This document shows positions 11,900-62,932 of a DNA stretch of 64,000 nucleotides, piece after piece. A program made the translations under genes and the position numbers. The DNA is taken from IMG/VR virus record IMGVR_UViG_3300003691_000003, positions 14,097-78,096 of that record. One strand, written 5' to 3'. Under the pieces are notes generated by a model, which saw only the letters and a list, made by a program, of their open reading frames with translations, made no database searches and was not told the DNA's origin. The stretch comes from a virus (Duplodnaviria > Heunggongvirae > Uroviricota > Caudoviricetes). The number at the start of each line of letters is the position of its first letter. Positions within the stretch are counted from its first letter, which is position 1.

Positions 11900-11924
11900 T
11901 GGTATAAGCCTTATGTAGATACTT
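11900..11924 (+). promoter_or_regulatory. extended -10 promoter copy 2
   Basis: TGGTATAAGCCTTATGTAGATAC upstream of the SNF2 helicase. Confidence 0.5.
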
Positions 11925-11943
11925 ATTCATAGGAGGATTAGAA

Positions 11944-13935
11944 ATGAAAGTATGTTTTTCGAATAATAAAAAAAGGATTCTTTTTAGACCTAACCCTAAA
12001 AACCCTATGGAGATACGAGCATTACGCAAGTTTGCAGGGGGTACTTTAGAGTCTAATGGGGATATATCATGCCCTGCAAAAATCAACGTAGCGTATAACT
12101 TGGTAAGACGGTTTAGTAAGAAATTCAGCAAGTACCTATCTATTGATACTGACGTAGATAAGTTTATATCCAAAGAATTCAAGCTTAAGGCTATACCAGA
12201 TAGCTTCAGTTACTTCACAACTCCTTTAAAACACCAAGAGATAGCCCTTAGGTATTTGTATACTGTTGGGTCTGCTGGTATTCTTTTAGATCCTGGCCTA
12301 GGCAAGACTAAGGTAATCTTGGATTATATGGCTCTTATGAAGTTTGGTAAGTCTCTTATAGTATGTCCTAAGGCATTACTCTTTGTGTGGGAAGAGGAAA
12401 TAGAGAAACATAGACCTGATTTAACTGGGTATATTGTTAAATCTACTACCTGGGGAATGCAGATAATAAACTTAGAAAAGAAACGTTTTCCAGAAGCTAC
12501 GGAGCGCAAGAAAGTACTAAAAGAAGGGAAGTACGACGTAGAGGAGCGCATAGTAGTATTAAAAGAAAGGTGGGAACTCCTCAAGGAGAAGAAGCTCGCT
12601 AAGCTACGTGAAGGCTGGGACGATGATAAGTATAATATAGCTAAGCATGACATCATAATAGTTAATTACGATAAAGTAGTTACTGGGCAGTATTACTTTG
12701 AGAAATTAGGTTTCGACTTTATAAGCGTAGACGAAGGGTTGATCAAAGACCCTAAGACAGAACGTACCAAAGCAGTGACAAGGCTAGGCAAGAGAATACC
12801 CTACCGATCTATTATGTCTGGGACATTAATAAACAACTCCCCACTTGACGTATTCGCACCCGTTCGTTTCCTAGAACCCTCATTGACAGGATCTGCTTTC
12901 ATAAAGTTCAGAGATAGATACTGTACAGTCATAAAGCCTAAGGCTAACCCTAATGCTGTCAAACAATTCACTGGATCGTTTATAGCTGGGTATAACGACG
13001 TAGATGAGGTTCGCTCTATACTGGAATCTTGCAGCATAGTTATGTCTAAGGATGAATGGTTGGATTTGCCTCCTAAGAAATTCCATAATATATATTGTGA
13101 TATGTCGGATGAACAGCAGGTTCATTACGAAAACCTAGCTACGAATTATATAACTAAGGTTGGAGAAGATTATGTAGAAGTAGATTCGGCCCTTACAGTG
13201 ATGTGTAAGTTATCTCAGATACCTAACGGATTTATATACATATATAACGAAGAAGAATTAGACGAACTAGTCAACGATGACGATAGTGAGTTTGATGACT
13301 TGGATTTAGTACCAGAAGATTCAGTAGAGGATGTGCCTGAGGTAAAGCGAATACGTAAGACTCACTTCTTTAAAGCTCAACCGAAGATAGATAAGTTCAG
13401 AACTTTGTACAGAGAGAAGCTACATAACCGAAAGTTTATAATGTGGTATAACATGTCTGCTGAAGCTGAAATAATAGAGAAAGAGTTTGCTAGTAGTGGC
13501 GTAAGCTATTTATCTATAAAAGGTGGGGAGAAAGATACTGGCGGTAAGGTTAAACGATTTAACACTGACCCTTCTATACAGATACTATTATGTCAGGCTA
13601 AGTCGGTTAACTACGGAATAACGGTACTAGGATCTACGCCTGAGAAGCTAGAAGCTAATGGCATACAGGTAGTGCCGGATATAAACCCTTCAGTATTTAC
13701 CCAAGTGTTTTATAGTCTCAACTATAGCTTAGAATTGTTCTTGCAACAGCAGGATAGGTGTCATCGCATAGGTCAAGATAAGGAAGTAGATTACTATCTA
13801 TTACTTACAAGAAATACGACCGATATGGATATACTAAGTAGACTGGATGAGAAAATGAACATACGTGCCAGCATACTGGTAGACGTTTTAAATTTATTAA
13901 AAGAGAGGATAGGTAACAAAGGTGGCGACATATAA
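11944..13935 (+). CDS. SNF2-family DNA-dependent ATPase / helicase
   Basis: Motif I LLDPGLGKTKVIL, motif II DEGLIK (DExH-like), and the C-terminal SNF2 signature QQQDRCHRIGQDKEV (motif VI, Q..R.HRIGQ). Confidence 0.8.
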   Translation: MKVCFSNNKKRILFRPNPKNPMEIRALRKFAGGTLESNGDISCPAKINVAYNLVRRFSKKFSKYLSIDTDVDKFISKEFKLKAIPDSFSYFTTPLKHQEIALRYLYTVGSAGILLDPGLGKTKVILDYMALMKFGKSLIVCPKALLFVWEEEIEKHRPDLTGYIVKSTTWGMQIINLEKKRFPEATERKKVLKEGKYDVEERIVVLKERWELLKEKKLAKLREGWDDDKYNIAKHDIIIVNYDKVVTGQYYFEKLGFDFISVDEGLIKDPKTERTKAVTRLGKRIPYRSIMSGTLINNSPLDVFAPVRFLEPSLTGSAFIKFRDRYCTVIKPKANPNAVKQFTGSFIAGYNDVDEVRSILESCSIVMSKDEWLDLPPKKFHNIYCDMSDEQQVHYENLATNYITKVGEDYVEVDSALTVMCKLSQIPNGFIYIYNEEELDELVNDDDSEFDDLDLVPEDSVEDVPEVKRIRKTHFFKAQPKIDKFRTLYREKLHNRKFIMWYNMSAEAEIIEKEFASSGVSYLSIKGGEKDTGGKVKRFNTDPSIQILLCQAKSVNYGITVLGSTPEKLEANGIQVVPDINPSVFTQVFYSLNYSLELFLQQQDRCHRIGQDKEVDYYLLLTRNTTDMDILSRLDEKMNIRASILVDVLNLLKERIGNKGGDI

Positions 13936-14278
13936 TGTTTATGAATCAACTTATGGTACTAGTACTTCTGGAACTGGTACTGATTGGGGTAGTGGTACAG
14001 CCACAGGTACTACTTATGCTAGTATCTCTGGTGGAACATATCAGACAGTCAATTGGGAAACAGAAACCGAAAGAGTAGTATTGGACAACGAAAGGAACAT
14101 GGTCTTTAGGATGCTCCCCCAAAAGAAACATAGTTGGATGGGTTCTATTTTTCCAAAAAAGGGACTCAATAAGGCAGACGTAAGAAAGATATTCATAGGA
14201 AGAAAATTTATAATCAAGGCTACTAGAGGTCACCCTCCAAGCTCTGACCACATGCTATCAAATTACTTATTTGAGTAG
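13922..14278 (+). CDS. hypothetical Gly/Thr/Ser-rich protein (uncertain)
   Basis: 118-aa ORF overlapping the helicase stop. Low-complexity N-terminus GTSTSGTGTDWGSGTATGT. A competing antisense ORF exists at 13946..14251. Confidence 0.3.
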   Translation: MATYNVYESTYGTSTSGTGTDWGSGTATGTTYASISGGTYQTVNWETETERVVLDNERNMVFRMLPQKKHSWMGSIFPKKGLNKADVRKIFIGRKFIIKATRGHPPSSDHMLSNYLFE

Positions 14279-14283
14279 ATTCT

Positions 14284-14308
14284 TGGTATAAGTAATATGA
14301 GGAGAAAT
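14284..14308 (+). promoter_or_regulatory. extended -10 promoter copy 3
   Basis: TGGTATAAGTAATATGAGGAGAAAT. Confidence 0.5.
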
Positions 14309-14311
14309 ATT

Positions 14312-14521
14312 ATGAATACTTTGATCAAATACATACTACTAGTAATTGCGGTTCTCGGTTTACTTCTTGGAGGAGGAGGGTGGATGTTCAGCTTAGGCTT
14401 ACAGATACTAATCGCACCGCTAATGTTCTTGGGATATATATTCTTGTTCCTATTCGGTCTATACGCTGCAGCCAATGTAGTAGCTCTACTATTTGGTGGC
14501 TTTTCAAACAAAAGAGGGTAG
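14312..14521 (+). CDS. small membrane protein
   Basis: GAGGAG RBS then ATG at 14312. Two hydrophobic helices (LIKYILLVIAVLGLLLGGGGWMF...LMFLGYIFLFLFGLYAAANVVALLFG). Lies downstream of promoter copy 3. Confidence 0.5.
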   Translation: MNTLIKYILLVIAVLGLLLGGGGWMFSLGLQILIAPLMFLGYIFLFLFGLYAAANVVALLFGGFSNKRG

Positions 14522-14551: not shown

Positions 14552-16126
14552 ATGAAAGATTCAATACTCGACTACTTCCCATTCGAGGAAGCTCGCGCAT
14601 CTCAAAAACAAGTTATACCCTTAATACAAAAAGCGTACGAGGACGGCAAGAAAGTAGTAATACTAGAAAGCCCTGTAGGTTCTGGCAAGTCTGCTATGGC
14701 TATGACTATAGCTAGATTCTATGGTAATAGTCACATACTTACTCCTAGAAAGGCGCTGCAAGATCAATACTACAATGATTTTAAAGACCATGTCACTGTA
14801 ATGAAAGGCAGGGCAGCTTATCCGTGCTATTGGGAACTAGGACACACGTTTGATAAATCCTATTATCAAAAAAATATAGAGCTTGGTAAACCCTTATATA
14901 TGAGCAAAGATATAATAACTACTGCAAGCGGTCCATGTAGCCATGCAAAAAACGGTAAAGAGAACTTCCAGAAATGCATGGAAGTACATACCATTTGCCC
15001 ATACGCTAGGGCAATAGACGTGGCTAACGATTCAGATCATATAATTCATAACCTGCACGGGTTTATATACCAAGCTAACTTCGCAGAAAGATTCGAGGTT
15101 AGGGACTTGCTAGTGGTTGATGAGGCTCATGATCTCGAAGGTATAGTACGTGGCTTTACTTCTAGGACGATAACAGTGGTTAAGCGACTTAGCCAAATGC
15201 CAGGAGTAACTATCCCCGAGTTCAAGCACTTAGATGAATGGATAGATTGGTTTCAGACAGAAGACTTTACTCCTAGGGACAGAAAATCGAAAGAAGACTT
15301 CGAGGAGTCTGTGGATAAGCTGGAAGCATCTAAGATGTCAGAGTTTGTCGTGGAGGTAGATGAGGATAGTTATAAAAGAACTACCAAGTTCAAGTTCACT
15401 CCTATAAGCATAGGAACTATGCCGCACTCTCTCATACTGAGCTTCGGTAAGCGTGTGTTGCTTATGTCTGGGACGATATATAACAAAGATACATTCTGTA
15501 GAAGTATAGGCATAAAGCCAGATGATGCTCATTTCATTAGAGTAGGTAGTTCCTTTCCCGTAGAGAAAAGGCCTATATACATGAAGAGGAAGTATCTACA
15601 CGATACGTCTCACGCAGGGTGGTCAAGAAATTTAACAGAAATTGGTATAAGTATACTGAAGATACTTGACGTCTACTCAGATGTCAAAGGCATAATACAT
15701 GTATCTTCTTACTCCGCTATGAACGATATTATGAGTACCGTAAAAAGTAGTAGGTTAATTGCACACGACAGAGAGGATGCTATAAATGGGTTGGATAATT
15801 TTTTTAAATCAGAAGGTAACGGAGTTCTAGTGTCACCTATCTGTCATCAAGGGGTAGACTTTAAAGATGATAGAGCAAGATTTCAAATAGTAACAAGAGT
15901 GCCTTATGCTAATACAGGGGACGTGTTTATACATCATAAAGTAAAGACGGATTTCCCATGGTATAACTTGCAGGCTCTAGTTAAGTTTGGTCAAATACTA
16001 GGCAGAGTTAATCGCTCAGAATCAGATTATGGAGCTACTATTCTACTAGATGAACGTTTCGAGAAATTCATCAACAGGAATCGTAGACTTATACCGAATT
16101 GGATTTTAGAAGCAATTCTAAAATAA
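14552..16126 (+). CDS. DinG/Rad3 (XPD)-like Fe-S DNA helicase
   Basis: Walker A ESPVGSGKS and DEAH box VVDEAHDL. A four-Cys cluster (C...C...C...CPY) sits between motifs I and II as in Rad3/DinG Fe-S helicases. C-terminal helicase motif QGVDFKDDRARFQIVTRVPY. Confidence 0.8.
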   Translation: MKDSILDYFPFEEARASQKQVIPLIQKAYEDGKKVVILESPVGSGKSAMAMTIARFYGNSHILTPRKALQDQYYNDFKDHVTVMKGRAAYPCYWELGHTFDKSYYQKNIELGKPLYMSKDIITTASGPCSHAKNGKENFQKCMEVHTICPYARAIDVANDSDHIIHNLHGFIYQANFAERFEVRDLLVVDEAHDLEGIVRGFTSRTITVVKRLSQMPGVTIPEFKHLDEWIDWFQTEDFTPRDRKSKEDFEESVDKLEASKMSEFVVEVDEDSYKRTTKFKFTPISIGTMPHSLILSFGKRVLLMSGTIYNKDTFCRSIGIKPDDAHFIRVGSSFPVEKRPIYMKRKYLHDTSHAGWSRNLTEIGISILKILDVYSDVKGIIHVSSYSAMNDIMSTVKSSRLIAHDREDAINGLDNFFKSEGNGVLVSPICHQGVDFKDDRARFQIVTRVPYANTGDVFIHHKVKTDFPWYNLQALVKFGQILGRVNRSESDYGATILLDERFEKFINRNRRLIPNWILEAILK

Positions 16127-16646: not shown

Positions 16647-16676
16647 GAAGCCCACTAATCCTGGGCTTCATTTTTT
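16647..16676. terminator. bidirectional rho-independent terminator between convergent genes
   Basis: GAAGCCCA-ctaatcc-TGGGCTTC followed by ATTTTTT. Lies between 16442..16633 (+) and the sigma factor gene (-). Confidence 0.7.
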
Positions 16677-17440
16677 AGATAGTATTTTTTTAGCAACCTG
16701 ATAGCTTCACTTCGTTTAGCACGAACCATGTCTTTAGGCATGCTCATTTCCCTAGCAACAGACGCAGCTCTGCGTTCCTTGCCAGTATCCATGCCAAAAG
16801 TTAAGTATACAATTCTAGATAAGTCCTCTGGAAGAGTCGTCAATGCATTGTGTAGAAAGGTAGATTCTATTTCAGTTTCTATAGCACCTTCGAACGGATT
16901 TATTAGCTTTTCCGATTCTGTTACATCTTCAAAGAAGTAAGTTAGGTACCTGGTTTTAGATAATTCATTAAGATCCTTTCTGGCAACATCGGGGAAGCGC
17001 TCACACAGTTCATCCAAGGTAAGAGGTACTTCCCTTGAGTTCTGAGCCTTTAATATCCTGGTAGATAACTGCTGCTTCCATATAGGCAGGGCAACTACTC
17101 TCATCTGGGACATAGCCTTGAGCTGTCTCTGTAAAACCCACCAACCTGCATAGGTCAGGAACTTTACTCCAGTGTGGTGATCAAATTTATTGAAGCCCAC
17201 TAGCAAGCCTTCATTACCGGCAGCTATTAAGTCTTCGAATTGGTTCTGATCATTTCGGGAAAGGTCTTTTGCTTTTTTAAAAACATATCGCAAATTTGCT
17301 TTAATAACAACATCTCTGGCCCTACTGCGTTCTTTCTCAGGAAGGTCCTTGTTATAGTAAGTCTTAAATAGTTCTTGTTCCTCCTCACGACTAAGCATTT
17401 TTTGCTTACATATTTCGTCATAATATTTCGTGAGATCCAC
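16655..17440 (-). CDS. sigma-70 family RNA polymerase sigma factor
   Basis: Region 2: DLIAAGNEGLLVGFNKFD...GVKFLTYAGWWVLQRQL (compare DLIQEGNIGLMKAVEKFD..GFKFSTYATWWIRQAI). Region 4 HTH: ASVAREMSMPKDMVRAKRSEAIRLLKK. A lone minus-strand gene among plus-strand genes. Confidence 0.8.
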   Translation of the reverse strand: MDLTKYYDEICKQKMLSREEEQELFKTYYNKDLPEKERSRARDVVIKANLRYVFKKAKDLSRNDQNQFEDLIAAGNEGLLVGFNKFDHHTGVKFLTYAGWWVLQRQLKAMSQMRVVALPIWKQQLSTRILKAQNSREVPLTLDELCERFPDVARKDLNELSKTRYLTYFFEDVTESEKLINPFEGAIETEIESTFLHNALTTLPEDLSRIVYLTFGMDTGKERRAASVAREMSMPKDMVRAKRSEAIRLLKKYYLKNEAQD

Positions 17441-17534
17441 TCTATAAGTATCCTCTTAGGTTTGATTTCAAGTGTAGTATATGATAATATGCCACCTCCT
17501 ATAAAGTCAAGTCCTAGTATACGAGAGGGTATAT

Positions 17535-17744
17535 ATGTCAGTTATTAACGTAGAAGTATCTACTAACCAAGACGGAATCACAGAATTACACTTCAAGTCT
17601 AGACGTGCTTCTGAAGAATCCAAAGATATTTTAGATCAAATATTGTTCGCTACTGTAGCTCCTGGGCTACGCAGAGGTGGATACATCAATTCAAATTCTG
17701 TAAAAATACAATTTAAGCCAGACAATTCCACAAAAACGAAATAG
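17535..17744 (+). CDS. hypothetical protein
   Basis: 69-aa ORF with RBS gagagggtatatATG. Confidence 0.4.
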   Translation: MSVINVEVSTNQDGITELHFKSRRASEESKDILDQILFATVAPGLRRGGYINSNSVKIQFKPDNSTKTK

Positions 17745-17745
17745 G

Positions 17746-17770
17746 TGGTATAAGCAATATGGTCATGGAA
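17746..17770 (+). promoter_or_regulatory. extended -10 promoter copy 4
   Basis: TGGTATAAGCAATATGGTCATGG. Confidence 0.4.
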
Positions 17771-18842: not shown

Positions 18843-18844
18843 AA

Positions 18845-20508: not shown

Positions 20509-21162
20509 TTGAATAACAGCCTCTATAGATACCGTAAACCCTTAACCCCCAAAGTTGAGATAGCGGCATCCGTAGAGGCTAAACCTTGCACTACCTGCAG
20601 GGAACAAAAACTCTTAAGAGAATTCCACAAAAGCAAGCAGAGAAAAGACGGTAGAATATCTATTTGTAAATCCTGCTGGTCGTACAATGATAGAAATAAT
20701 CCCGTACGCATAACTACTATAATTAAGTGCAGGACTACTTGGAATCTTAATAATCCAGAAAAAATAACAGCTGCAAGCGGAAAAAGAAGAGCAGATGAGA
20801 TAAAGGCTACCCCAGGGTGGTTTAATAAAAAAGAAGTAGAAGGGATATACCGATTGTCTGCTTCATGTAGAGACGAATACGGAGATAAATATCCTACCGA
20901 TCATCGTGTTCCACTGAACGGTAGAAAACTAGAGTATGCAGATTGTACCCAAGTTTGCGGACTTCACGTAGGACAAAATTTAGAACCCTTTCCAAAAAGA
21001 CCCAACTCCCAAAAAAGTAATAAACTGTTACCCCAGTACGGTGTATCCCCTGAAGCAATTCCTGATGGGCATTACAAAGTATGGGTAGGGGACGTGTATG
21101 GAGAAGGATTCAGCATAGCAGAATTTTATAATAAAGAACTAATAAGGATAACTACAACATGA
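20509..21162 (+). CDS. HNH endonuclease (putative homing endonuclease)
   Basis: N-terminal Cys4 zinc finger (C..C...C..C). C-terminal [37 protein letters not shown] motif. This motif is paralogous to the C-terminus of 53851..54702. Its stop overlaps the thyA start (ATGA). Confidence 0.65.
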
Positions 21163-22118
21163 AGCAATACTTAGAACTACTGAAAGATGTTAAAGAAAAA
21201 GGTAGAGCTAAACACGATAGAACTGGTACTGGCACAGTAGCCCTATTCGGTGCGCAATCTAGATACGATTTGACCGAGAATAAACTTCCCGTAATAACTA
21301 CTAAAGCAGTACACCTTCCTTCAGTAATACATGAGTTGTTGTGGTTTATATCTGGCAATACTAATGTCAAATACCTCCAGGATAACGACGTAAAGATATG
21401 GAATGAGTGGGCGGATGAGTGGGGAAACCTTGGTCCAATCTATGGAAAGCAATGGCGTAGGTGTAACAACTATAAAGATACATCCTGGGGCCGTGCTAGG
21501 GACGTAGAGGGTAATGAGCTGGTAACTAAGGACGTAAGTATAGATCAGCTGCAAAACGCCATAGACACGATATTAGACGATCCCTACAGCAGACGAATAA
21601 TAGTTAGTAGCTGGAACGTAGCAGATATCTCAGATATGAAGCTGCCACCTTGCCACTTACTGTTCCAATTCTACGTAGAAGATATGACTACTTCGGAAAG
21701 AGCTGAATGGTTACAATCTCATGATTTAGAATGTTTCAAAACGTATTATCTAGAAGGAGACTCTTCATTAGATGATCTGAACGTACCACGTCGCTGGTTA
21801 AGTACTCAGTTGTATCAACGTTCTGCAGATATGTTTCTAGGAGTTCCTTTTAATATAGCAAGTTATGGGTTGCTTACTCACATAGTAGCAAAGCTTACGA
21901 ACACTGCCCCGAGAGAATTCATACACACCATAGGGGATGCTCATATCTATTCAAATCATTTTGAACAAGTGGACGAGCAATTATCTCGTGAGGTAAGACC
22001 TTGTCCCACCATAGTGTTTAATGAAGAGCTTACAGAGTTGAGCGAACTATCTATAGATAGCTTTGACGTCATAGATTATGACCCTCATCCAAAAATAAAA
22101 GCTAAAGTAGCAGTTTAA
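21159..22118 (+). CDS. thyA: thymidylate synthase (ThyA family)
   Basis: [11 protein letters not shown]...DRTGTGT...[23 protein letters not shown]...[19 protein letters not shown]...[12 protein letters not shown]...[25 protein letters not shown]. These motifs are collinear with E. coli/L. casei ThyA and include the catalytic Cys. A ~35-aa insertion follows FYV, as in the L. casei-type enzyme. Confidence 0.9.
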
Positions 22119-22354: not shown

Positions 22355-22377
22355 TAGTTAAGAAAATAGGGTAAACA

Positions 22378-22402
22378 TGGTATAAGAACTTTGAGGAGAA
22401 CT
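22378..22402 (+). promoter_or_regulatory. extended -10 promoter copy 5
   Basis: TGGTATAAGAACTTTGAGGAGAAC. Confidence 0.5.
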
Positions 22403-22405: not shown

Positions 22406-22624
22406 ATGACTATGTTTATTTGCAAGACAAAAGTAGTTGGAAGTGAATGGAAATGTGATAGATGCGGTTACAGTTGGGACTTAGATGATAAAGATATTCC
22501 CAAGTGTAAGACTAGAGAGCGGGTTGCCAAAGACGATGCCATTAGGGCTGAGGATCTGAGGCTCGCTAAGAGCAGAAAACATATTCACTACATACGTACA
22601 CAAATATTAGGAGAGGACATATGA
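22406..22624 (+). CDS. small zinc-ribbon protein
   Basis: Promoter copy 5, then GAGGAG RBS, then ATG at 22406. Pattern C..C(12)CDRCGY. Confidence 0.45.
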   Translation: MTMFICKTKVVGSEWKCDRCGYSWDLDDKDIPKCKTRERVAKDDAIRAEDLRLAKSRKHIHYIRTQILGEDI

Positions 22625-28746: not shown

Positions 28747-28939
28747 CGTAAAAGAGCAGGTGAAAGTATCTAGGGATTTAGCTAGGGCAATTATGTTTAG
28801 TACTCTGTATGATGTGCCTGATTCAGAATTAGAGAATTTTCTGAGAGAGCGTAACTCTGAGTATGATTATAAGGTCGTACATAGCCCTCCTTATTCTCAC
28901 GATAACCTGGCTAAAAAAGTTTTAAGGTATAATGAATAG
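28739..28939 (+). CDS. hypothetical protein
   Basis: 66-aa ORF overlapping the upstream stop. Confidence 0.4.
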   Translation: MTDVKEQVKVSRDLARAIMFSTLYDVPDSELENFLRERNSEYDYKVVHSPPYSHDNLAKKVLRYNE

Positions 28940-28949
28940 GGCAGTTTTT

Positions 28950-28974
28950 TGGTATAAGTATACTGAGGAAATGT
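28950..28974 (+). promoter_or_regulatory. extended -10 promoter copy 6
   Basis: TGGTATAAGTATACTGAGGAAATG. Confidence 0.5.
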
Positions 28975-29009: not shown

Positions 29010-29366
29010 ATGCAATGCAATTGTGATCAAGCACTTGACCTGATTAAGCAACGGGACAATATTAAAAAAAGATACTTAACTTTGTTGGATGATATAATGG
29101 AATACGGTATATCTGAAAGCACAGGAAAAGGTGTACACGTACGGGCTAGAATCAAAGCGTTTAGAAAAGATATACAACAGACCATACCTTGTAGTAGACA
29201 TGAGTTGACCAAATGGCTATTAGACAATGGACACGATAGAGAGTTGGACATGGTTAACATATATAGTAGAGGGGCTGCTATCCACATTAGTTTTGAAGAT
29301 TGCGTTTGTGCGGTAGTACCTCAGTTATACCAGAAGTTCTTACTAGAAAATGTAAGGGCTGCATAA
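29010..29366 (+). CDS. hypothetical Cys-containing protein
   Basis: 118-aa ORF downstream of promoter copy 6. Confidence 0.45.
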   Translation: MQCNCDQALDLIKQRDNIKKRYLTLLDDIMEYGISESTGKGVHVRARIKAFRKDIQQTIPCSRHELTKWLLDNGHDRELDMVNIYSRGAAIHISFEDCVCAVVPQLYQKFLLENVRAA

Positions 29367-32212: not shown

Positions 32213-32238
32213 GGGGATCTTATAAGATCCCTTTTTTA
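32213..32238. terminator. bidirectional terminator between convergent genes
   Basis: Palindrome GGGATCTTATAAGATCCC followed by TTTTTT. Lies between the RyR gene (+) and the basic protein gene (-). Confidence 0.65.
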
Positions 32239-32637: not shown

Positions 32638-32679
32638 ACGATTATTTTAACACAACGGGTCAATAACCTCTAATCATCT

Positions 32680-32704
32680 TGGTATAAGTATTATGTAGGG
32701 AACC
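32680..32704 (+). promoter_or_regulatory. extended -10 promoter copy 7
   Basis: TGGTATAAGTATTATGTAGGGAACC. Confidence 0.55.
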
Positions 32705-33882: not shown

Positions 33883-33963
33883 TTTTTGAGTAATCCGAGT
33901 AAGTGTATTATTTGTATACTAAGTAGTTTAACACACTATGTGGCCAATAAACAAAGCCTACTA

Positions 33964-33988
33964 TGGTATAAGTATATTGAGGAAACAT
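33964..33988 (+). promoter_or_regulatory. extended -10 promoter copy 8
   Basis: TGGTATAAGTATATTGAGGAAACA. Confidence 0.5.
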
Positions 33989-34192: not shown

Positions 34193-34251
34193 TGCGTGGT
34201 GCAATAAAGGAAAGAGCCCAGCTCTTTCTTTTAAATAAAAATATCACTTCC

Positions 34252-34276
34252 TGGTATAAGGGTTATGTAGAGAGCA
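34252..34276 (+). promoter_or_regulatory. extended -10 promoter copy 9
   Basis: TGGTATAAGGGTTATGTAGAGAGC. Confidence 0.5.
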
Positions 34277-34582: not shown

Positions 34583-34608
34583 AAGGGTTTTCATGCCCTT
34601 ATTTTTTT
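34583..34608 (+). terminator. terminator-like hairpin
   Basis: AAGGG-ttttcatg-CCCTT followed by ATTTTTTT. Confidence 0.45.
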
Positions 34609-34627
34609 ACATATCTCTATAGAAGAT

Positions 34628-34652
34628 TGGTATAAGTATAGTGAGAATAAAT
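34628..34652 (+). promoter_or_regulatory. extended -10 promoter copy 10
   Basis: TGGTATAAGTATAGTGAGAATAAA. Confidence 0.5.
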
Positions 34653-38271: not shown

Positions 38272-38664
38272 ATGGATAACTACAAAAAAGTGGCAACACA
38301 AAATCCTATATCCTACGAAGAGTATGAAGAAGCAGTTGCTCTTAGTAAAACTTGTGATAAAACAGTGCAGGAATATCACAAATCAAATAGGGAAATTTTC
38401 AAAGAACGAATGAGGGAGAATCCGATTTTCGATGACGATGAACTCCGCTATTCAGCAACAGCATTCTGTGATTGCGGTCATGGAATGGCTTACCCAAAAG
38501 ATTGCGATACATTGCATTATTGGTCATGTTCGGCAATATTAAAAGGCATGGCAGATGGTAACTTACCTCACACAGAAGATCTACCGTTCACATATTATTC
38601 AGTGAAGGCGGAGAGTGATAGTAACGGTAGTACACGTGGAAGAGTGCTACCTAACTTTAGTTAA
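38272..38664 (+). CDS. hypothetical protein
   Basis: 130-aa ORF with a GAGGAA RBS. Contains CDCGHGMAYPKDCD...HYWSC. Confidence 0.5.
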   Translation: MDNYKKVATQNPISYEEYEEAVALSKTCDKTVQEYHKSNREIFKERMRENPIFDDDELRYSATAFCDCGHGMAYPKDCDTLHYWSCSAILKGMADGNLPHTEDLPFTYYSVKAESDSNGSTRGRVLPNFS

Positions 38665-38680
38665 TATTGAGTTAGGTTTT

Positions 38681-38705
38681 TGGTATAAGAGTAGTAGAGA
38701 GATTT
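38681..38705 (+). promoter_or_regulatory. extended -10 promoter copy 11 (overlaps a terminator hairpin)
   Basis: TGGTATAAGAGTAGTAGAGAGATT. Confidence 0.4.
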
Positions 38706-38718
38706 ACTACTCTTTTTT
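38688..38718 (+). terminator. rho-independent terminator
   Basis: AGAGTAGTA-gagagattt-TACTACTCT followed by TTTTTT. Confidence 0.65.
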
Positions 38719-43054: not shown

Positions 43055-43137
43055 TTTTTAGTCCGTTTAAGCGAGGTATACGTTCGTAGGTAAATGTCAA
43101 CGTTTGTAAATCTATATTCAAGAGTTTAACACAAAAG

Positions 43138-43162
43138 CGGTATAAGTATATTGAGAGAGACC
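43138..43162 (+). promoter_or_regulatory. extended -10-like promoter copy 12 (CGG variant) ahead of the Cys-protein array
   Basis: CGGTATAAGTATATTGAGAGAGACC. Confidence 0.45.
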
Positions 43163-45004: not shown

Positions 45005-45210
45005 GCCTATCAACTGAGACGCCGTCTAGGATATGTCACTTTATGGACAAGGGTAAATGTACCGTGTGCGGAATGGAAACCAAATACCTAATAGCTTTAG
45101 ATGCAGACTTTCTTTTCGCCATCAGCCTACCTACTTACTCTGAAACTTTAAGAAAAGGTAAAGCAGTTGCCTGCGGGTCTAATTCTCATAGGTTATTCAG
45201 TAGTCTGTAA
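45001..45210 (+). CDS. HLV-CxxC family member 9 (divergent)
   Basis: ICHF..CTVCG...C..SHRLF. Confidence 0.45.
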   Translation: MSLSTETPSRICHFMDKGKCTVCGMETKYLIALDADFLFAISLPTYSETLRKGKAVACGSNSHRLFSSL

Positions 45211-45222
45211 CGTGGTAGTTTT

Positions 45223-45247
45223 TGGTATAAGTAATGTGAGGAGGATT
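45223..45247 (+). promoter_or_regulatory. extended -10 promoter copy 13, internal to the array
   Basis: TGGTATAAGTAATGTGAGGAGG. Confidence 0.5.
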
Positions 45248-47828: not shown

Positions 47829-48227
47829 ATGGAAGAACAATATAATACGATCTTAATCATAAACGACGTACACGTATCAGATGTACTTACCTCCGTGGTA
47901 TGGTCAAAAGTTAAAAAGATCCAGGTAAGAGTACGTAGTTTTCTTTCATCCGGGGTCGACGAGGGACGAGAGCCTTGTGCGGAAAGCGACGGAGTTAATG
48001 TGTTAGAAGTTGCCGTGCACACGACGGACGGGAGTAGGCCAGTGCTGTCTCGTACTGAATTCGTTCTTACTAAAGACTTTGACGTTGGGGTAGGAATAGA
48101 AGAAGAGGCTACCAGGGTTTTGTTAGATAAAGTGTATACGAAGTTTACCAGAAAACCGAATGTTATAAATGTCAGAGAGACAATGGTAGACTTCTTAGAT
48201 AAGCGCTCATCTCCATCAAATAAATAG
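47829..48227 (+). CDS. hypothetical protein
   Basis: 132-aa ORF with a GGAGAT RBS. Confidence 0.5.
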   Translation: MEEQYNTILIINDVHVSDVLTSVVWSKVKKIQVRVRSFLSSGVDEGREPCAESDGVNVLEVAVHTTDGSRPVLSRTEFVLTKDFDVGVGIEEEATRVLLDKVYTKFTRKPNVINVRETMVDFLDKRSSPSNK

Positions 48228-48236
48228 TACCCCTAG

Positions 48237-48261
48237 TGGTATAAGTATTATGTAGAAACAT
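48237..48261 (+). promoter_or_regulatory. extended -10 promoter copy 14
   Basis: TGGTATAAGTATTATGTAGAAACAT. Confidence 0.55.
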
Positions 48262-48285: not shown

Positions 48286-48468
48286 ATGAACTGCCAGTTT
48301 AAAAATGGGAAATACATCTTCGAGAAGAACGGAGTTTATTTCTCTGCTACAAAGGAGCAGGTGGGTGAGCTAAGTGACATATGTAATCAAATACTAGAAG
48401 AGGAGGGTAATAGTGATAGGACGAAACAAAGTACCAGAGGAGAACATCTTCTCTCTAAATCAGGGTAA
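48286..48468 (+). CDS. hypothetical protein
   Basis: Promoter copy 14, AGGAGT RBS, 60-aa ORF. Confidence 0.4.
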   Translation: MNCQFKNGKYIFEKNGVYFSATKEQVGELSDICNQILEEEGNSDRTKQSTRGEHLLSKSG

Positions 48469-52922: not shown

Positions 52923-53005
52923 TTGGTAAGTCTCGTTAGGGTTATTAGTCGTATTCAATGAAAGTATTTTAGCACGAGAATTCCCTCAATAACAACTGGC
53001 GGACT

Positions 53006-53030
53006 TGGTATAAGTATTATGTAGAGAAAC
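53006..53030 (+). promoter_or_regulatory. extended -10 promoter copy 15 (the consensus itself)
   Basis: TGGTATAAGTATTATGTAGAGAAAC. Confidence 0.55.
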
Positions 53031-53055: not shown

Positions 53056-53292
53056 ATGGATACACCACACGTTACCCCTGTTCTTGACGGAGAAAAAATT
53101 ATACGTCAAACACGGAACGGCAATTATATGGTATGTATAGTAGGATACGAAGACGTAGATGACCCCTACCTTAAGCCATTCGTATCGGTTCATCATGTGA
53201 GTGAAAACCCACGTGATAGAATGACATTTAAAAATATCAAGGACGCTAACGCATTTGCAGATGTCCAGAATAAAATAGATATAACTTTCTGA
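53056..53292 (+). CDS. hypothetical protein
   Basis: Promoter copy 15, GAGGAG RBS, 78-aa ORF. Confidence 0.45.
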   Translation: MDTPHVTPVLDGEKIIRQTRNGNYMVCIVGYEDVDDPYLKPFVSVHHVSENPRDRMTFKNIKDANAFADVQNKIDITF

Positions 53293-55201: not shown

Positions 55202-55314
55202 GTTCAGTCTCCGTTATTAGTATTCAGTACGTCTAGTTTAAAGCATGGATGCTACTTATGTAAATACCTGATATAATCAAAGAACTGTATATAGACCTCA
55301 CTGGAGAACTATCC

Positions 55315-56271
55315 ATGAACCAACCGAGTATTAAGCCTAATGCGGCAGATGAACATATGAAGAAAGGGATCTTAGACTATATCTCTGAGTCAAGAATAGG
55401 AATGTCACTGGCCTGTATCGCCCTATCCATAGGGGTTCTGTTCTATCCTAAATGGGTTAGAGAAAGGATTGACGCCATCAGATCTAAGACGGGAGCGTAC
55501 GACAAAGTTCTAACATTGCTCGTGGACAACCCCCTTATTGAGCACGCAGCAGTGCTCAGAGAGATGAATTTGGATGCTCAGAGCTCTGTGCTGGCCTCTA
55601 ACGTGAGGTGGCTGTGTAATGATACCATCGAGGTGACTAAGAAGCTAACAAGAGCTCAGCACGTTATTAAGGGCAAAGATCTAGACATCAAGTTTACAAA
55701 TCAAGAGAATATAGACCTTATCTCCTTTATGACCAAGGTGTATCCTAGTTATTTAAGCATAGACCTCAATGAAAAGTTAGATGCTGACATGTCCAATATG
55801 GTTGTCATGGAAACTCCTTATGGTCAGATAGTATGGCACGTGCATGAAGACGAGTTGATGGCGTTCGATCACTTAGACATCCAAGACTACTCCCGAGAGC
55901 CTGATTCCCTGAGTATAGACAAGAGCGATTGCATTAGGATGTGCAAGAATTCCAAGATCAATCCCCATATAGGTAGCTACGGTAATGTCATAGCCTTTTA
56001 CTATGAAACTACCCGAGACAAACCTGTCGAGGTCCAAACCATTGCGGCGATGTCAGGGTACAACGATTATGTCGACGACCTAGCACCTAGACACATGTGG
56101 ATTGAGGTTGACCGGTATGGTACTAAGAAGTGTGTTAAGTATACATTCGAAGAAAGTACCGATGACCTACACGGAGAGAAGCTCGGGCCATCAATCACTG
56201 ACAATCCTCAGGTTGAGAAGAAGGGCTCAGTTATTCCATTACAGTTAGTACCTACACTGAAGCTGGACTAA
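55315..56271 (+). CDS. hypothetical protein
   Basis: 318-aa ORF with a GGAGAA RBS and one N-terminal hydrophobic helix (MSLACIALSIGVLFY). A strong terminator follows at 56314-56337. Confidence 0.5.
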   Translation: MNQPSIKPNAADEHMKKGILDYISESRIGMSLACIALSIGVLFYPKWVRERIDAIRSKTGAYDKVLTLLVDNPLIEHAAVLREMNLDAQSSVLASNVRWLCNDTIEVTKKLTRAQHVIKGKDLDIKFTNQENIDLISFMTKVYPSYLSIDLNEKLDADMSNMVVMETPYGQIVWHVHEDELMAFDHLDIQDYSREPDSLSIDKSDCIRMCKNSKINPHIGSYGNVIAFYYETTRDKPVEVQTIAAMSGYNDYVDDLAPRHMWIEVDRYGTKKCVKYTFEESTDDLHGEKLGPSITDNPQVEKKGSVIPLQLVPTLKLD

Positions 56272-56313
56272 GCCAATATCATAGGCTTCCTTTCTGGGAG
56301 CACAGTTCAGGGA

Positions 56314-56337
56314 GGAGTCATTGCGACTCCTTTTTTT
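56314..56337 (+). terminator. rho-independent terminator
   Basis: GGAGTC-attgc-GACTCC followed by TTTTTTT. Confidence 0.7.
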
Positions 56338-57704
56338 ATGAGTTACGAGAAAGTACGGATTTGTCACAGATTGGCAGACTAGTGTAAATGCTCTAGAGGC
56401 CACGTGATTGCTGACTATGGTGTTTTCTTGGATGAGGTGATAGGAACGAATTCTCAAAATCGTCACAGAAGAGTCACAGGAAAAGGTTACGTAAGTTACT
56501 GATATTTATACAGTTAAGGTAGTATGCCCTTTGAGAATATTTTTTACACTAGGAACAACCCCTCATATAAATATATTTTTTAAAGAAAAGTATATTATAT
56601 TACTATAGGTTGTCACAGAGTAACGGTAGAGAGGGAGAAGTTTTTCAGACGGAGTTTTACCTTGGTTGATGTTTTGTTGTAGCGGAAAATAGTTTCGCTG
56701 GATTTATTTTTTTATTTTCAAGTGAGGAATATTTCGTGTCGTATATTCTAAGTATCGTAGAAAATACCTGTGACACCGGAACAGGCTCGGAACGCTCGGG
56801 AACACCCTATTGTTCCCTGGGAAAGGTACGGGGTTATTGGTCTGAGGTGGTTTCTTAGAACGGTGGGAACAGCAGAAATTATTCTATTAGCCATTTATAG
56901 AAAACTGGAAATTATGGGTTGACACCAAATCATGACCCCGTGACGGTTTGTGTATTAGTTGAAAAAAATTATTTTCGTGTCACAGCCGTTCTAAAAACCT
57001 TGATGGGACCAGTCATACCGTGCGTCTCAGCGGGAACAATTGGGTGTTCCCAAGCTGTTCCCAAGCGTTCCCAGCTGTCACAAAAGTAGAAATCGTACAA
57101 TAAACGTACAACTTTTGTCGTTTAATTAGAATGTTTTCACTTTTCTTGACCGTCAAAATTTTGGCTCCCGGTATGAAAAAACGCTGAAACGCATTGAAAC
57201 ATTTGACACACTTTTTTATGACACCCTTTTTTGGACGGTTTTTAGCTAAAAACACTGTACGTTTTTTGTACAAATCGTACGTTTATTGTACAAATTGATC
57301 ACTTTTTGTCCCGGGACGAAAATAACGACACATTTGATGCAAATACGACACTGTAAGCTAGAAAATACCTTAGCTTTCTATCGTAACTACCATCCAAGCT
57401 CTCTAAATCATTAGAAAGCGTCAAAATATTGACACTATTTACTTCTTTGGCCTATCACACGTATAATCACTGTCAAATCCATGACAATACCCAAGAAAGT
57501 ACCGTAGTTACGACACTATGCTCCGCAGTCCACTACCTACGACTCTACATCCTTCTACTATACCTTACGAATCGCCCATGGAACAATCATGGAACAATTA
57601 CACGAATCGTCTTTGACCCTGTCACACATTGTAGCTATGTTAGTAACCACTAACCTATTTATTTGACTATAAATCACAGATGTTTCCAAGAAAGTACCGA
57701 AGAG

Positions 57705-57729
57705 TGGTATAAGTACTATAGAAAAGGAA
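57705..57729 (+). promoter_or_regulatory. extended -10 promoter copy 16
   Basis: TGGTATAAGTACTATAGAAAAGG, inside the non-coding repeat region. Confidence 0.45.
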
Positions 57730-57889
57730 CTTTAGGCGATAGTAATGTTACTCTAACTTAGAAATGTTCCTCGAATGTAACACCTACTGTTCCCGTGACT
57801 ACTCAACGAGCTTTAGGCGATAGAAAAGGAACTTTAACATATACATTGTTCCTCGAATGTAACACCTACTGTTCCCAAGGAAAATACCT

Positions 57890-58306
57890 ATGACCAATCC
57901 GACCCCGTTAGACCTTAAGCCAAAGGTTACATCAATGCATGAGATCAGGGCCTATCTATTTACATATGTCTCCGATATTTTCTCTGATAAGCTAGGCAAC
58001 TCGCTTGAACGCTTAGCTGTTGACACTAAGACATCACGCAGCAGTATCTTTTACTGGAGAGCACATGGTAGGTTCAGTCGACGTATGTTACTTAGAATGC
58101 TCAATCATCTGGACATAGAAGAGAGAGACTGGACTCATGCATTATCAATTACTGCTACAGCTCTCCATAAATCTCACTGGAGGATACTACCTAAGAAGAA
58201 AGACTACGATTCATCAGTAGTCTGTACTCTCGCATACCCTTCATTCAAACGAACCCTAGAAAACTCTGCAAAAAATTTGTCTGAGTTGGGTAAACCAAGA
58301 AAATAG
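57890..58306 (+). CDS. hypothetical protein with a possible HTH
   Basis: 138-aa ORF. LERLAVDTKTSRSSIFYWRAHG looks HTH-like. First gene after the repeat region. Confidence 0.45.
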   Translation: MTNPTPLDLKPKVTSMHEIRAYLFTYVSDIFSDKLGNSLERLAVDTKTSRSSIFYWRAHGRFSRRMLLRMLNHLDIEERDWTHALSITATALHKSHWRILPKKKDYDSSVVCTLAYPSFKRTLENSAKNLSELGKPRK

Positions 58307-58314
58307 CCAAACAC

Positions 58315-58339
58315 TGGTATAATTATTATGTAAGACCTA
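58315..58339 (+). promoter_or_regulatory. extended -10 promoter copy 17
   Basis: TGGTATAATTATTATGTAAGACC upstream of the SPFH gene. Confidence 0.5.
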
Positions 58340-58381: not shown

Positions 58382-59347
58382 ATGCAAGACGAACAGAAAA
58401 CAAAAAAGACATTCTTCTCAGAAACACGCAAGGATAGATACGGAGATGAACGTCTCACCCTTAGAGCAGGGAGGGTAGTTGGAGTAGCAATGTCATCATT
58501 CATTACTCTTATCATCATGGCAAACTCATACACAACTGTTAGTTCTGGTCACGTTAAGGTTAGAACCTTCTTCGGTGAGGTATCTCATGAGGAATTAGCT
58601 GAAGGGTTTCATGTCGTACATCCATTAGCTACATTCAGTAAGTATGATACGAGACAGCGTACCGTAACAATAGATAACATCATGGTTCCAAGTCAGGATA
58701 AGCTTAAGACCGATATGGATGTATCGATCATCTACAGTCTAACTGCAGCATCTGCATCAAACGTTAAGCAAACTGTTGGTTCTTTACAGGACCTAGAAAC
58801 TACCTTTCTTGTAGTCAAGGCTCGGTCATTGATTAGAGAGCTCGGCAAGGGTATTCTACAGTCTCAGGATTTCTTCCTAGATAGTGTACAGCAACAAATG
58901 CAGGTGGATGCTACTATCCAACTGTCTGAGTTCATGTCCAGTAAAGGAGTCGTAGTGCATGAGGTGTTATTTAGAGATGTGACACTACCATTGGTTGTAT
59001 CTAACGCCATTATCGAGACTAAGCAACGACAAGAGCAAGTGAATCAGGAAAAAGCTGCACTTCAGATTGTTGAGCAGAAGTCTAGACAAGTAGTAGTCCA
59101 AGCTAAAGCACAAGAAGACGCTGCGTTATCTACTGCTAACAAGAAACGTACACTTGCTGATGCTAATGCGTATGAAATACTTACAGCTGCAAGAGCTAAG
59201 GCAGAAGGTAACGACTTGGTTAAGAGATCTATCACGCCAACCTTGATAGAATATGTCAAAGCAACGTCATGGGATGGTAAATACCCTACAACCATGATGG
59301 GTAATGACACTCCGATACTTATGACTATGCCTGTTAAAAGTAATTAA
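58382..59347 (+). CDS. SPFH / band-7 (prohibitin, HflK/C-like) domain membrane protein
   Basis: N-terminal TM helix VVGVAMSSFITLIIMA. Then GHVKVRTFFGEV...GFHVVHPL...YDTRQ, the typical SPFH-domain opening. A long coiled-coil-like Q/A/K-rich region follows. Confidence 0.65.
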   Translation: MQDEQKTKKTFFSETRKDRYGDERLTLRAGRVVGVAMSSFITLIIMANSYTTVSSGHVKVRTFFGEVSHEELAEGFHVVHPLATFSKYDTRQRTVTIDNIMVPSQDKLKTDMDVSIIYSLTAASASNVKQTVGSLQDLETTFLVVKARSLIRELGKGILQSQDFFLDSVQQQMQVDATIQLSEFMSSKGVVVHEVLFRDVTLPLVVSNAIIETKQRQEQVNQEKAALQIVEQKSRQVVVQAKAQEDAALSTANKKRTLADANAYEILTAARAKAEGNDLVKRSITPTLIEYVKATSWDGKYPTTMMGNDTPILMTMPVKSN

Positions 59348-61491: not shown

Positions 61492-61538
61492 CGTAGTTAA
61501 AATACGTATGAACTCACTAACTAACGGAGAAAATACCT

Positions 61539-61736
61539 ATGAAGTTCTTAATTGTACTACTCACTGTCTTTACCTTAGCCAGTTGTGGTGGACGTAGCTC
61601 AAAGCCAACACCATTTGAAGTGTCCCCGAACGACGAAGATACCATTATAATGCAAGGTTGCAGGGATCTGAAGAAAGAAGTCCTTGATTGGAACCTTAAC
61701 CACCCTAACGAAGCTCCTAAAACGGCGGATTGCTAA
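61539..61736 (+). CDS. small lipoprotein
   Basis: MKFLIVLLTVFTLASCGG: a signal peptide with the lipobox LASC. Confidence 0.55.
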   Translation: MKFLIVLLTVFTLASCGGRSSKPTPFEVSPNDEDTIIMQGCRDLKKEVLDWNLNHPNEAPKTADC

Positions 61737-61737
61737 T

Positions 61738-62136
61738 ATGACTGACTTAAAAGACAAGCTAGCAGCTATACACAAGCAAGTATTCGATCTTTTTACCTAT
61801 GCTGAAGACATTGTTCAGTATGGAATGGAAGAGAAGTGGGTAATGCCTGAGCGTGACTACGACGGAAGCGAGCCTATCCTTGGTGATTGCGAAGACTTTG
61901 CCCTTGCATGTAGGGCACTGTGCAGATTAGCAGGTGTAGATAACTCTCGTCTAATCTATTGTGTGACTGAAACTGATGAAGGACACTGTGTTCTGGAAGT
62001 AGAAGGTTGGATACTAGACAATAGACAAGAAAAACTAACAAGCCGAGATAGTGTGAGAGCTTTCGGTGGATACGAATGGGTTGCAGCTTCTGGATATAAT
62101 TCAGGCGAACCTTGGAGACTAATAACAAACGGATAA
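61738..62136 (+). CDS. transglutaminase-like cysteine peptidase fold protein
   Basis: GDCEDFALACRALCRLAGV...DEGHCVLEV...LDNRQ gives a Cys-His-Asp order and spacing as in the transglutaminase-like superfamily (G.C..FA.....LLR..GIP ... GHAW.EV). Confidence 0.45.
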   Translation: MTDLKDKLAAIHKQVFDLFTYAEDIVQYGMEEKWVMPERDYDGSEPILGDCEDFALACRALCRLAGVDNSRLIYCVTETDEGHCVLEVEGWILDNRQEKLTSRDSVRAFGGYEWVAASGYNSGEPWRLITNG

Positions 62137-62163
62137 CATCCGTGATTGCCATAAGGAGGACTT

Positions 62164-62886
62164 ATGTCACTTGGAGACTGGTTAACTAACGCCAACAACA
62201 TATTTAGAAGAGACTCACCTACCCACGCCACTAGAAGTCCTGGTACGAACTCGGGCCTACCCCCAACCATACCTGTACAGCCTTCCATTAGTGCGACTTC
62301 TGACTTACCTCAAAATGCTACCTTTCGTGTTAACGGACTTGGAGGCGGTTTAGCTAACAGTGAAGGGACCATAAATACTTACCGAGGGCAACCAATAGGA
62401 GTGCGTGGAGTGTCTAGCCCGACTGAGTACTTAGAAGACCGATACCTTGGAGGGTATGGCGCCACTGAGGAAAGCCGTCTTCATAGAGAACGTGCTGATA
62501 GGGCTCAAAATGAGTTTGCAAGAATGTACGATATGAACGTCGAAATTAATAACGTCGATCAGGAGCGCGAAGACTACTATCGGGACATGTCTCGTGGAAC
62601 CAGAACGGAGGTTCGCTACGAGCAGGAAGTCTGTGAATACAGAGGAATGGAGGTTATGCCTGACACTTGTCCTCGTGATGATAGAAGATACTCTAGAAGA
62701 CATAGTAACAGAGTGACTGACATGCGCACCGGAGAGCCTATACCTATGGAGAGGCTAGAGCATAGATTGAACTCCCTTAGCAATAGGTTGTCTGACTGTC
62801 ACCATACCATATCCCAGCTTAAATCTGAGCTGGAAAAGTATAAAGCTCTAGCCGCAACCGGCGTATCTAACTTATTCGAAAGCTAA
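62164..62886 (+). CDS. hypothetical protein
   Basis: 240-aa ORF with an AAGGAGG RBS, Arg/Glu-rich. Confidence 0.5.
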   Translation: MSLGDWLTNANNIFRRDSPTHATRSPGTNSGLPPTIPVQPSISATSDLPQNATFRVNGLGGGLANSEGTINTYRGQPIGVRGVSSPTEYLEDRYLGGYGATEESRLHRERADRAQNEFARMYDMNVEINNVDQEREDYYRDMSRGTRTEVRYEQEVCEYRGMEVMPDTCPRDDRRYSRRHSNRVTDMRTGEPIPMERLEHRLNSLSNRLSDCHHTISQLKSELEKYKALAATGVSNLFES

Positions 62887-62907
62887 AGTCACCTTTTGCC
62901 CATTTTC

Positions 62908-62932
62908 TGGTATAATGAATATGTAGGAACAC
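62908..62932 (+). promoter_or_regulatory. extended -10 promoter copy 18
   Basis: TGGTATAATGAATATGTAGGAACAC. Confidence 0.5.

Follow-up and report, generated by a model that had tools for sequence, protein, structure and literature searches.

The 64,000-nucleotide stretch of a Caudoviricetes genome analyzed here (the window; positions 14,097 to 78,096 of IMG/VR record IMGVR_UViG_3300003691_000003) carries a recurrent motif, built on the nonamer TGGTATAAG, that is very likely a promoter. The window also encodes parts of a transcription apparatus. A fused RNA polymerase of 1506 amino acids, comprising beta and the N-terminal part of beta', is encoded on the minus strand at 40..4560 (Pfam Rpb2_6 at 8e-52, Rpb1_1 and Rpb1_2; DYDGD catalytic motif). 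Its open reading frame (ORF) adjoins the portal gene on the structural-gene strand, and its product shares 53% identity with gp206 of Salmonella phage Arash and 51% with the counterpart in Vibrio phages D69, D148 and D181. The minus strand at 16655..17440 encodes a sigma-70-family factor of 261 amino acids (Pfam Sigma70_r2) that is 45% identical to Arash gp196. The portal, SNF2 helicase, second helicase, PD-(D/E)XK nuclease, thymidylate synthase and primase genes have homologues in Arash, and their order is conserved.

The motif is confined to the plus strand of the window. The pattern TGGTATAA[GT] occurs 18 times on the plus strand and 0 times on the minus strand, and 16 copies of the 9-mer TGGTATAAG are observed versus 0.37 expected. 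A position weight matrix (PWM) covering -22..+22 was compared with both strands and with 50 shuffles. It finds 19 sites scoring 21-41 bits, every one on the plus strand, while no minus-strand score is above 8 bits and the shuffle maximum is 18.4 bits. The preliminary description of this DNA had counted eighteen plus-strand copies between 11900 and 62932, and the PWM finds exactly that number in the range, 17 beginning with TGG and one with CGGTATAAG at 43138; the nineteenth, at 6929, lies outside it. The sites are intergenic in 18 of 19 cases, the exception being 15643, and leaders from the predicted start to the ATG are mostly 12-52 nt long, with ribosome-binding sites of the GAGGAG type ahead of the genes.

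The individual sites, all on the plus strand and named by the position of TGG or its variant, are as follows. Site 6929 (6909..6950; 40.7 bits) precedes the ORF 7010-7279 with a leader of 66 nt and has TCAATAA at the -35 position. Sites 11900 (11880..11921; 35.0 bits) and 58315 (58295..58336; TGGTATAAT; 32.5 bits) precede the SNF2 helicase gene 11944-13935 and the SPFH/Band-7 gene 58382-59347 (Pfam Band_7), and the earlier assignments of both genes were correct. In the orthologue of site 11900 in the metagenomic relative L017, TGGTATAAG is kept and the flanks are only 23-32% identical. At 14284 (14264..14305; 39.7 bits) GAGGAG starts at the predicted +1, with a likely ATG at 14312. Short leaders are also found at 22378 (22358..22399; 34.8 bits; 13 nt to the ORF 22406-22624) and at 45223 (45203..45244; 31.5 bits; 12 nt to the ORF 45250-45507). 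Overall, GAGGAG lies at +1/+2 in three sites, giving leaders of 12-13 nt.

Further sites precede the ORFs 29010-29366 (28950; 28930..28971; 35.0 bits), 34010-34192 (33964; 33944..33985; 35.2 bits) and 34679-35059 (34628; 34608..34649; 32.5 bits). Site 32680 (32660..32701; 38.5 bits) lies before the ORF 32729-33184 and is divergent from the minus-strand gene 32236-32637. Site 34252 (34232..34273; 39.2 bits) has a 115-nt leader before the ORF 34382-34576, with a 5' stem-loop of -8.4 kcal/mol and a terminator-like hairpin just upstream of the site. The variant site 43138 (43118..43159; 22.8 bits) is found before the ORF 43194-43430, site 48237 (48217..48258; 38.3 bits) before the ORF 48286-48468, and site 53006 (52986..53027; 36.6 bits) before the ORF 53056-53292. 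Site 57705 (57685..57726; 27.9 bits) has a 170-nt leader before the ORF 57890-58306 and borders a non-coding repeat region of 1.6 kb. The last site, at 62908 (62888..62929; TGGTATAAT; 25.6 bits), is located before genes of the DNA-polymerase region.

Three of the sites have unusual surroundings. The promoter-like site 15643 (15623..15664; 39.3 bits) is inside the helicase ORF 14552-16126 and is a possible internal promoter for the genes at 16143 and 16442. All of its promoter features are kept in L017 (at 12997), and more distant relatives have only the codon string for WY(K/N)Y, without the TG start. The TG start and upstream box are thus superimposed on this string only in the window and its closest relative, L017, suggesting that the internal promoter evolved recently. 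Site 17746 (17726..17767) is weak, with 21.2 bits and a leave-one-out score of 7.7. The conserved gene start ATGGAAAAGAA follows about 4 nt past its predicted +1, so that a transcript from this site would be nearly leaderless, and the same arrangement recurs in L017 and L018. Site 38681 (38661..38702; 29.2 bits; before the ORF 38743-38934) is overlapped by a plus-strand terminator-like hairpin at 38687-38714. This hairpin has 12 pairs followed by a T-run, and its stem starts within the TATAAG of the site, which suggests a compact module that would end upstream transcripts and begin new ones at one place.

The conserved architecture of the motif extends on both sides of a nine-base core, and it includes less than the 25-nt consensus proposed earlier. 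The recurring motif of that proposal is real, although its full length was overstated. Only three sites match the 25-mer with up to 3 mismatches (53006 with 0, 32680 with 2 and 48237 with 3), and its terminal AAC is not conserved. What is conserved is T.AAtAA, 12 nt, TGGTATAAG, TA, 3 nt, TG and purines. The core TGGTATAAG is the invariant part. Relative to the T of TGG, TA at +9/10 is present in 13 of 19 sites, T at +14 is invariant in all 18 TGG sites, the TG pair at +14/15 is found in 17 of 19 (p=2e-19), and purines are conserved up to about +21. The preliminary description saw no conserved -35 element, a view that can be corrected: counted from the T of TGG, T.AAtAA occupies -20..-14, so that it falls at the -35 position behind a spacer of 17 bp, and [AC]A.A[AT] occurs at offset -18 in 11 of 19 sites (p=2e-13). 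Both this element and the TG start keep a fixed phase relative to the core. The G of TTGACA is present in none of the sites.

The downstream block is best read as a preference for the start site and the initial transcript, with T at -1, G at +1, and then T/A, A and R, a pattern that appears across lineages. Among the roles suggested previously, a start-site element fits best, with an invariant T and a near-invariant G located 5-6 nt past TATAAG and followed by a purine-rich initial transcript. The alternative of a conserved structured 5' leader was rejected. Folding of +1..+40 of all sites gave leaders that are no more structured than random windows and on average less so, both in the window and in Arash (Mann-Whitney p about 1). 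A 5' stem-loop is found in a minority of the sites, namely 6929, 15643 and 34252 by folding and 38681 by a hairpin scan, and in most D69 sites. No Rfam family matches in the window.

The distribution of the motif among genomes indicates that it belongs to a phage clade and not to a host. In Arash, with a genome of 180.8 kb and 53% GC, GGTATAAG/GGTATAAGTA is the top strand-specific word in an unbiased k-mer screen. GGTATAAG occurs 30 times on the non-structural-gene strand versus once on the other, with 2.4 expected, and the Arash motif sites are located upstream of genes and transfer RNA (tRNA) clusters. The T of TG is variable in Arash (T in 18 sites, G in 5, C in 4 and A in 3). The two G's after it are present in 31 of 31 sites, but these sites were selected as GGTATAA[GT]. 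The upstream box is found in only about a third of Arash sites. Vibrio phage D69 (45% GC) has the form TG[T/G/C]TATAAG-TAAyATGTA, preceded by TTCAATAA at a distance of 13 nt. The window, Arash and D69 are all enriched for the -35-position element at a common offset and for the TG start.

Besides Arash and D69, nine metagenomic relatives have the motif architecture. Orthologous motif sites are retained in the Arash-like IMG/VR contigs L014 and L015. In six relatives that include L017, of the group with 40-44% GC, motif sites lie on the replication-gene strand, with 8 sites in L017, 5-6 in L018, 3-4 in L019, 6 in L020, 3 in L021 and 7 in L022, and the opposite strand of each has 0-1 copies of GGTATAA[GT]. 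Every motif site, both in the window and in its examined relatives, is on the strand of the non-structural genes. Where orthologous intergenic promoters can be compared, the core is intact and the flanks have decayed to 23-37% identity, which is the random level. Searching IMG/VR for an exact 19-mer gave 8 loci. Three of these (L011, L012 and L013) encode clade proteins, including the C-terminal part of beta' (beta'C), structural proteins and DNA polymerase, and L008 is on the same contig as L011. Three homologous loci on IMG/VR contigs of 118-152 kb (L006 at 3551, L009 at 6340 and L010 at 99) have one exact TGGTATAAGTATTATGTAGAG each, with a stem-loop and T-run after it and canonical TTGACA-17-TATAAT promoters alongside; PHROGs identified only nucleotide-metabolism genes there. 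INPHARED contains no near-identical DNA for the window, L009 or L012. The Arash paper contains no mention of promoters (PMC10585845). A literature search found no paper with GGTATAAGTA in a phage context and none describing the motif.

The sigma gene has a promoter of a class distinct from the motif. On the minus strand at 17481..17510, before the gene, is the sigma-70-like sequence TTGACT-18-TATCAT, a 10/12 match with T at -7. Similar TTGAC(T/A)-~17-TAnnAT sequences precede the sigma orthologues of L017 (about 9934), L018 (about 9944) and Arash (120780, plus strand), and weaker, partial matches were read by eye before those of L020 and L022. The match in Arash requires that the start codon of gp196 be corrected to M60, and it appears that this gene is annotated as starting 59 codons too far upstream. 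These sequences have T at -7 and indicate that the genomes hold two distinct classes of sigma-type promoter. More than 200 metagenomic proteins belong to the family of the sigma factor, many of them with regions 2 and 4 (Sigma70_r2 and Sigma70_r4), and in every relative examined the gene opposes its replication-gene neighbors. Arash and D69 have a second sigma, gp10, with region 3. The window's sigma and the gp10-type sigma are the two candidates for reading the motif. Searches of IMG/VR for loci gave no result with the sigma factor and only two Arash-like contigs with the polymerase.

Genes on the structural strand may have a promoter class of their own. The preliminary description held that the minus-strand structural genes use something other than the motif, and this agrees with what is found upstream of them and of the RNA polymerase genes, where the candidate box yTAAA(A/C)TA is present in the window, Arash and D69. 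In the window (GTG)yTAAA(A/C)TA lies close upstream of minus-strand genes, including the portal and tail fiber genes and several genes within the plus-strand region. The box, often in the form GTGyTAAA(A/C)TA, occurs at about 32650, 33931, 43129, 52972, 11377 and 6864. Several of the window genes behind the box have no Shine-Dalgarno sequence or a start codon only about 5-6 nt past the box, and such genes may be leaderless. In Arash, late genes have CTAAAATA/TTAAACTA about 30 nt before the ATG, and the box is found upstream of gp39, gp185, gp199, gp204, gp212, gp216, gp218, gp228, gp229 and gp241; it is also present in L023 at 1158-1168. A late-type CTAAAATA element precedes the gp9/gp10 homologues of D69, which fits a gp10 homologue that is made late and packaged. 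A lone plus-strand GGGTATAAG before Arash gp9/gp10 was considered as a link in a cascade and rejected; it is probably a chance occurrence, with 2.4 expected per strand, and the D69 position has the late-type box. Counts of TAAAATA-type words give no strong strand statistics. As a putative third, late promoter class, yTAAA(A/C)TA is a lead that depends on position before late genes and not on enrichment.

The motif is probably a clade-specific promoter of non-structural (early or middle) operons that is read by a phage sigma factor, most plausibly on the phage polymerase. Its elements would be T.AAtAA at the -35 position, a 12-nt gap, a TGG extended -10, a TATAAG hexamer with G at -7, TA, 3 nt, T at -1 and G at +1, and a purine-rich initial transcript. 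The reader would be a phage-encoded sigma-70-family factor rather than the host primary sigma. The core enzyme would most likely be the phage's bacterial-type RNA polymerase, made up of the beta/beta'N protein (40-4560) and a beta'C subunit encoded outside the window.

Two assignments of the sigma factors are compatible with these promoters. In the preferred one, the polymerase and a virion-carried sigma homologous to Arash gp10 would be injected with the DNA and would fire the motif promoters immediately. The sigma-70-like promoter at 17481..17510 would drive expression of the sigma at 16655-17440, which would later switch transcription to yTAAA(A/C)TA of the minus-strand structural and polymerase genes. 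Mass spectrometry of Arash virions detected gp206 (beta) with 3516 spectra, the most of any protein, gp216 (beta') with 1210 and sigma gp10 with 467 (PMC10585845). Each of the three has about 2 spectra per residue, suggesting roughly equal amounts. The homologue of the window's sigma, gp196, is missing from the Arash virion list (PMC10585845). The other assignment, in which the window's sigma of the gp196 type reads TGGTATAAG and so defines a middle class comparable to that of the SPO1 gp28 cascade, is nearly as likely. For the clade as a whole, which is widespread and for the most part uncultivated (Arash, D69-like phages and many metagenomic relatives), a scheme in which a virion beta/beta' polymerase and its own sigma fire (T)GGTATAAG-N5-TG at injection, and a second sigma switches to the T4-late-like yTAAA(A/C)TA, is tentative, and its chances appear to fall short of even.

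Several points weigh against early firing by a virion-carried sigma or against a phage reader altogether. The conserved sigma-70-like promoter of the gp196-type gene fits an order of host polymerase, phage sigma and motif at least as naturally. The domain content of the sigma factors does not discriminate between them, since region 2, a 3.0-like helix and a C-terminal helix-turn-helix are present in each of the two families. Neither a homologue of the virion sigma gp10 nor the beta'C subunit is encoded in the window. The Arash virion list also includes many evidently non-structural enzymes, such as ribonucleotide reductase, ligases and kinases, and its authors allow for carry-over (PMC10585845). 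Packaging of the polymerase and sigma in Arash is thus likely and not proven. The +1 register and the timing of the motif promoters are inferred from DNA sequence. In addition, the motif is close to the bacterial extended -10, matching TGnTATAAT at eight of nine positions, and two sites are exactly TGGTATAAT, so that some recognition by the host enzyme is conceivable.

This near match is the basis of the strongest alternative to a phage reader, that the sites are plain host promoters. A sigma-A or sigma-70 holoenzyme would then read a strong extended -10, and the extra bases would tune strength or the choice of start. The TG at -15/-14 is as expected of host-type sites, with T in 18 of 19 and G in 19 of 19 window sites. 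The 17-bp spacing to the -35-position element and the spacing to a purine start are classical, and the early genes of many phages use host polymerase. The hexamer has the A at -11 and departs from TATAAT at -7, where T is near-invariant and essential for sigma-70/sigma-A. The base at -7 is G in 17 of 19 window sites, 30 of 31 Arash sites and all listed D69 sites, that is, in about 90% or more of sites across phages of different host groups, and the G of TTGACA is absent from the -35-position element throughout. The same non-consensus details are found in Salmonella, Vibrio and low-GC metagenomic phages, and convergence on a host consensus would not yield them. The sigma-70-like site before the sigma gene, with T at -7 and TTGACT, shows what the host-type form looks like here. 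Three scans of the window for canonical sigma-70-type sites gave 53 versus 50.6 expected, 35 versus 57.1 and 33 versus 36.6 (121 versus about 144 in total), with none above a 10/12 match. Because of the G at -7, the conservation across the clade and the lack of excess of canonical sites, the motif itself is likely a phage-specified class. These same observations, including the conservation in Salmonella and Vibrio phages, oppose the idea that the motif is basically a host sigma-A extended -10 and that the phage class lies elsewhere, and plain host promoters are an unlikely explanation.

Host-type promoters may nevertheless be present in these genomes. On the plus strand of the window at 55269-55277 is the canonical extended -10 TGATATAAT, without the downstream TG and upstream box of the motif. 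It is 37 nt before the gene 55315-56271 (318 amino acids, no Pfam match) and may be a true host-type promoter. In Arash, TTGAC(T/A)-17-TAnnAT is found 7 times versus 2.8 expected, with sites at 54870, 54379, 51785, 49355 and 19719 (minus strand). They are placed in a tRNA-rich region and before a deoxynucleoside monophosphate (dNMP) kinase gene, and may form a small set of host-type, immediate-early promoters.

Redirection of the host holoenzyme by a phage co-factor is a still more doubtful explanation. In such an appropriation, similar to that by MotA and AsiA of T4, an activator would read T.AAtAA in place of the -35. The motif mirrors the T4 middle architecture in having a good -10, a non-canonical box about 13 nt upstream and no TTGACA, and the box is conserved across the clade. 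This scheme leaves the G at -7 and the conserved downstream TA and TG unexplained, and the scarcity of the upstream box in Arash, noted above, does not suit it. No MotA-like or AsiA-like protein was found in Pfam screens of about 20 proteins, with most small ORFs outside the screen. The two sigma-family genes and the full polymerase of the clade make appropriation unnecessary. The idea that the motif is no promoter at all, being instead an RNA-level element (processing, 5' stabilizer or translation enhancer) or a DNA site (replication, packaging or recombination), is very improbable, since the stem-loops that follow a minority of window sites and most D69 sites and the three sites with GAGGAG directly past it are set against the low average structure of the leaders, the absence of Rfam matches, a best-conserved part that lies upstream of any plausible transcript start and has -10/-35 geometry, terminator-like hairpins that often precede sites (upstream of 34252 and 34628, overlapping 38681), and the strict gene-strand orientation and operon-head position that a promoter predicts.

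The motif shares features with several known promoter systems and is identical to none. It resembles sigma-70/sigma-A extended -10 promoters, recognized by regions 2 and 3.0, in that TG(G) abuts a TATAA- hexamer, the upstream element is about 17 bp away, a purine start follows about 7 nt downstream, and the likely reader is a sigma-70-family protein. It differs from them in the G at -7, the conserved TA at -6/-5 and T-1/G+1, and T.AAtAA instead of TTGACA; it is also conserved by phage lineage and not by host, and in Arash the T of TG is variable. Promoters of the group-3 sigma of Firmicutes (sigma-B type) have the form GTTTAA-N12-15-GGGTAT and share an A-rich TTAA-type upstream box, a gap of 12-13 nt and (T/G)GGTAT. 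In contrast to these, the block of the motif extends further (ATAAGTA) and the start spacing differs, and the motif is used by Salmonella and Vibrio phages, whose hosts lack sigma-B.

Among phage systems, the early promoters of phiKZ and AR9 also have a long conserved A/T-rich element and a conserved G start at a fixed distance of a few nucleotides; that of the AR9 virion polymerase is AAATATATATTAT-N6-G+1 (PMC5312081). They too are strand-specific and located at the heads of non-structural operons, and the presence of a multisubunit polymerase in virions is matched by its detection in a relative of the window, Arash. The motif sequence is different, and the jumbo-phage enzymes are split into 4-5 polypeptides whereas beta and beta'N are fused here, in an enzyme that aligns to bacterial rpoB/rpoC at about 25% identity. 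The clade has two sigma-70-family genes, while no sigma-family gene was found in phiKZ-type phages with multisubunit polymerases (PMC7824862). As with the sigma factors SPO1 gp28, phiEco32 gp36 and T4 gp55, a phage sigma gene lies behind a host-like promoter and a phage-wide consensus is unlike that of the host. Those factors use the host core polymerase, whereas the clade has its own. The T4 late box TATAAATA is one base apart from TATAAGTA and is also similar to yTAAA(A/C)TA, but T4 late promoters lack an upstream element and depend on a sliding clamp. A literature search found no paper on a sigma-dependent virion polymerase.

Two other features of the window may relate to DNA replication and composition. 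The region 56271-57890, about 1.6 kb, has no convincing ORF and no Rfam match, and it has dense short repeats of GTCACAG, (A/T)GACAC and GTTCCC/GGGAAC. The GC skew, mostly positive upstream, turns negative or close to zero between about 52 and 58 kb. This repeat region may serve as an origin, a terminus or a packaging region. At 21159-22118 on the plus strand is a clade-conserved thymidylate-synthase homologue of 319 amino acids, compared with 266 positions in the Pfam model. Relatives also encode deoxycytidylate (dCMP) deaminase and dNMP kinase, and the phage DNA may contain a modified pyrimidine.

The motif provides a simple diagnostic for an orphan phage clade that encodes two sigma factors together with a bacterial-type RNA polymerase of its own. 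It raises the question of how a sigma-70-family factor reads G rather than T at -7, for which Arash is a cultured member of the clade. If the proposed recognition is true, recognition of the -10 would have shifted from T to G at -7, insulating phage promoters from the host enzyme, and the clade would have the first virion RNA polymerase holoenzyme dependent on a sigma-70-family factor. Such a holoenzyme would form a link between the sigma-less polymerases of jumbo phages and the phages that supply only a sigma to the host enzyme. It would also offer a possible orthogonal set of promoter, sigma and polymerase for synthetic biology, and the three promoter classes would allow operons and their timing to be predicted across the clade.

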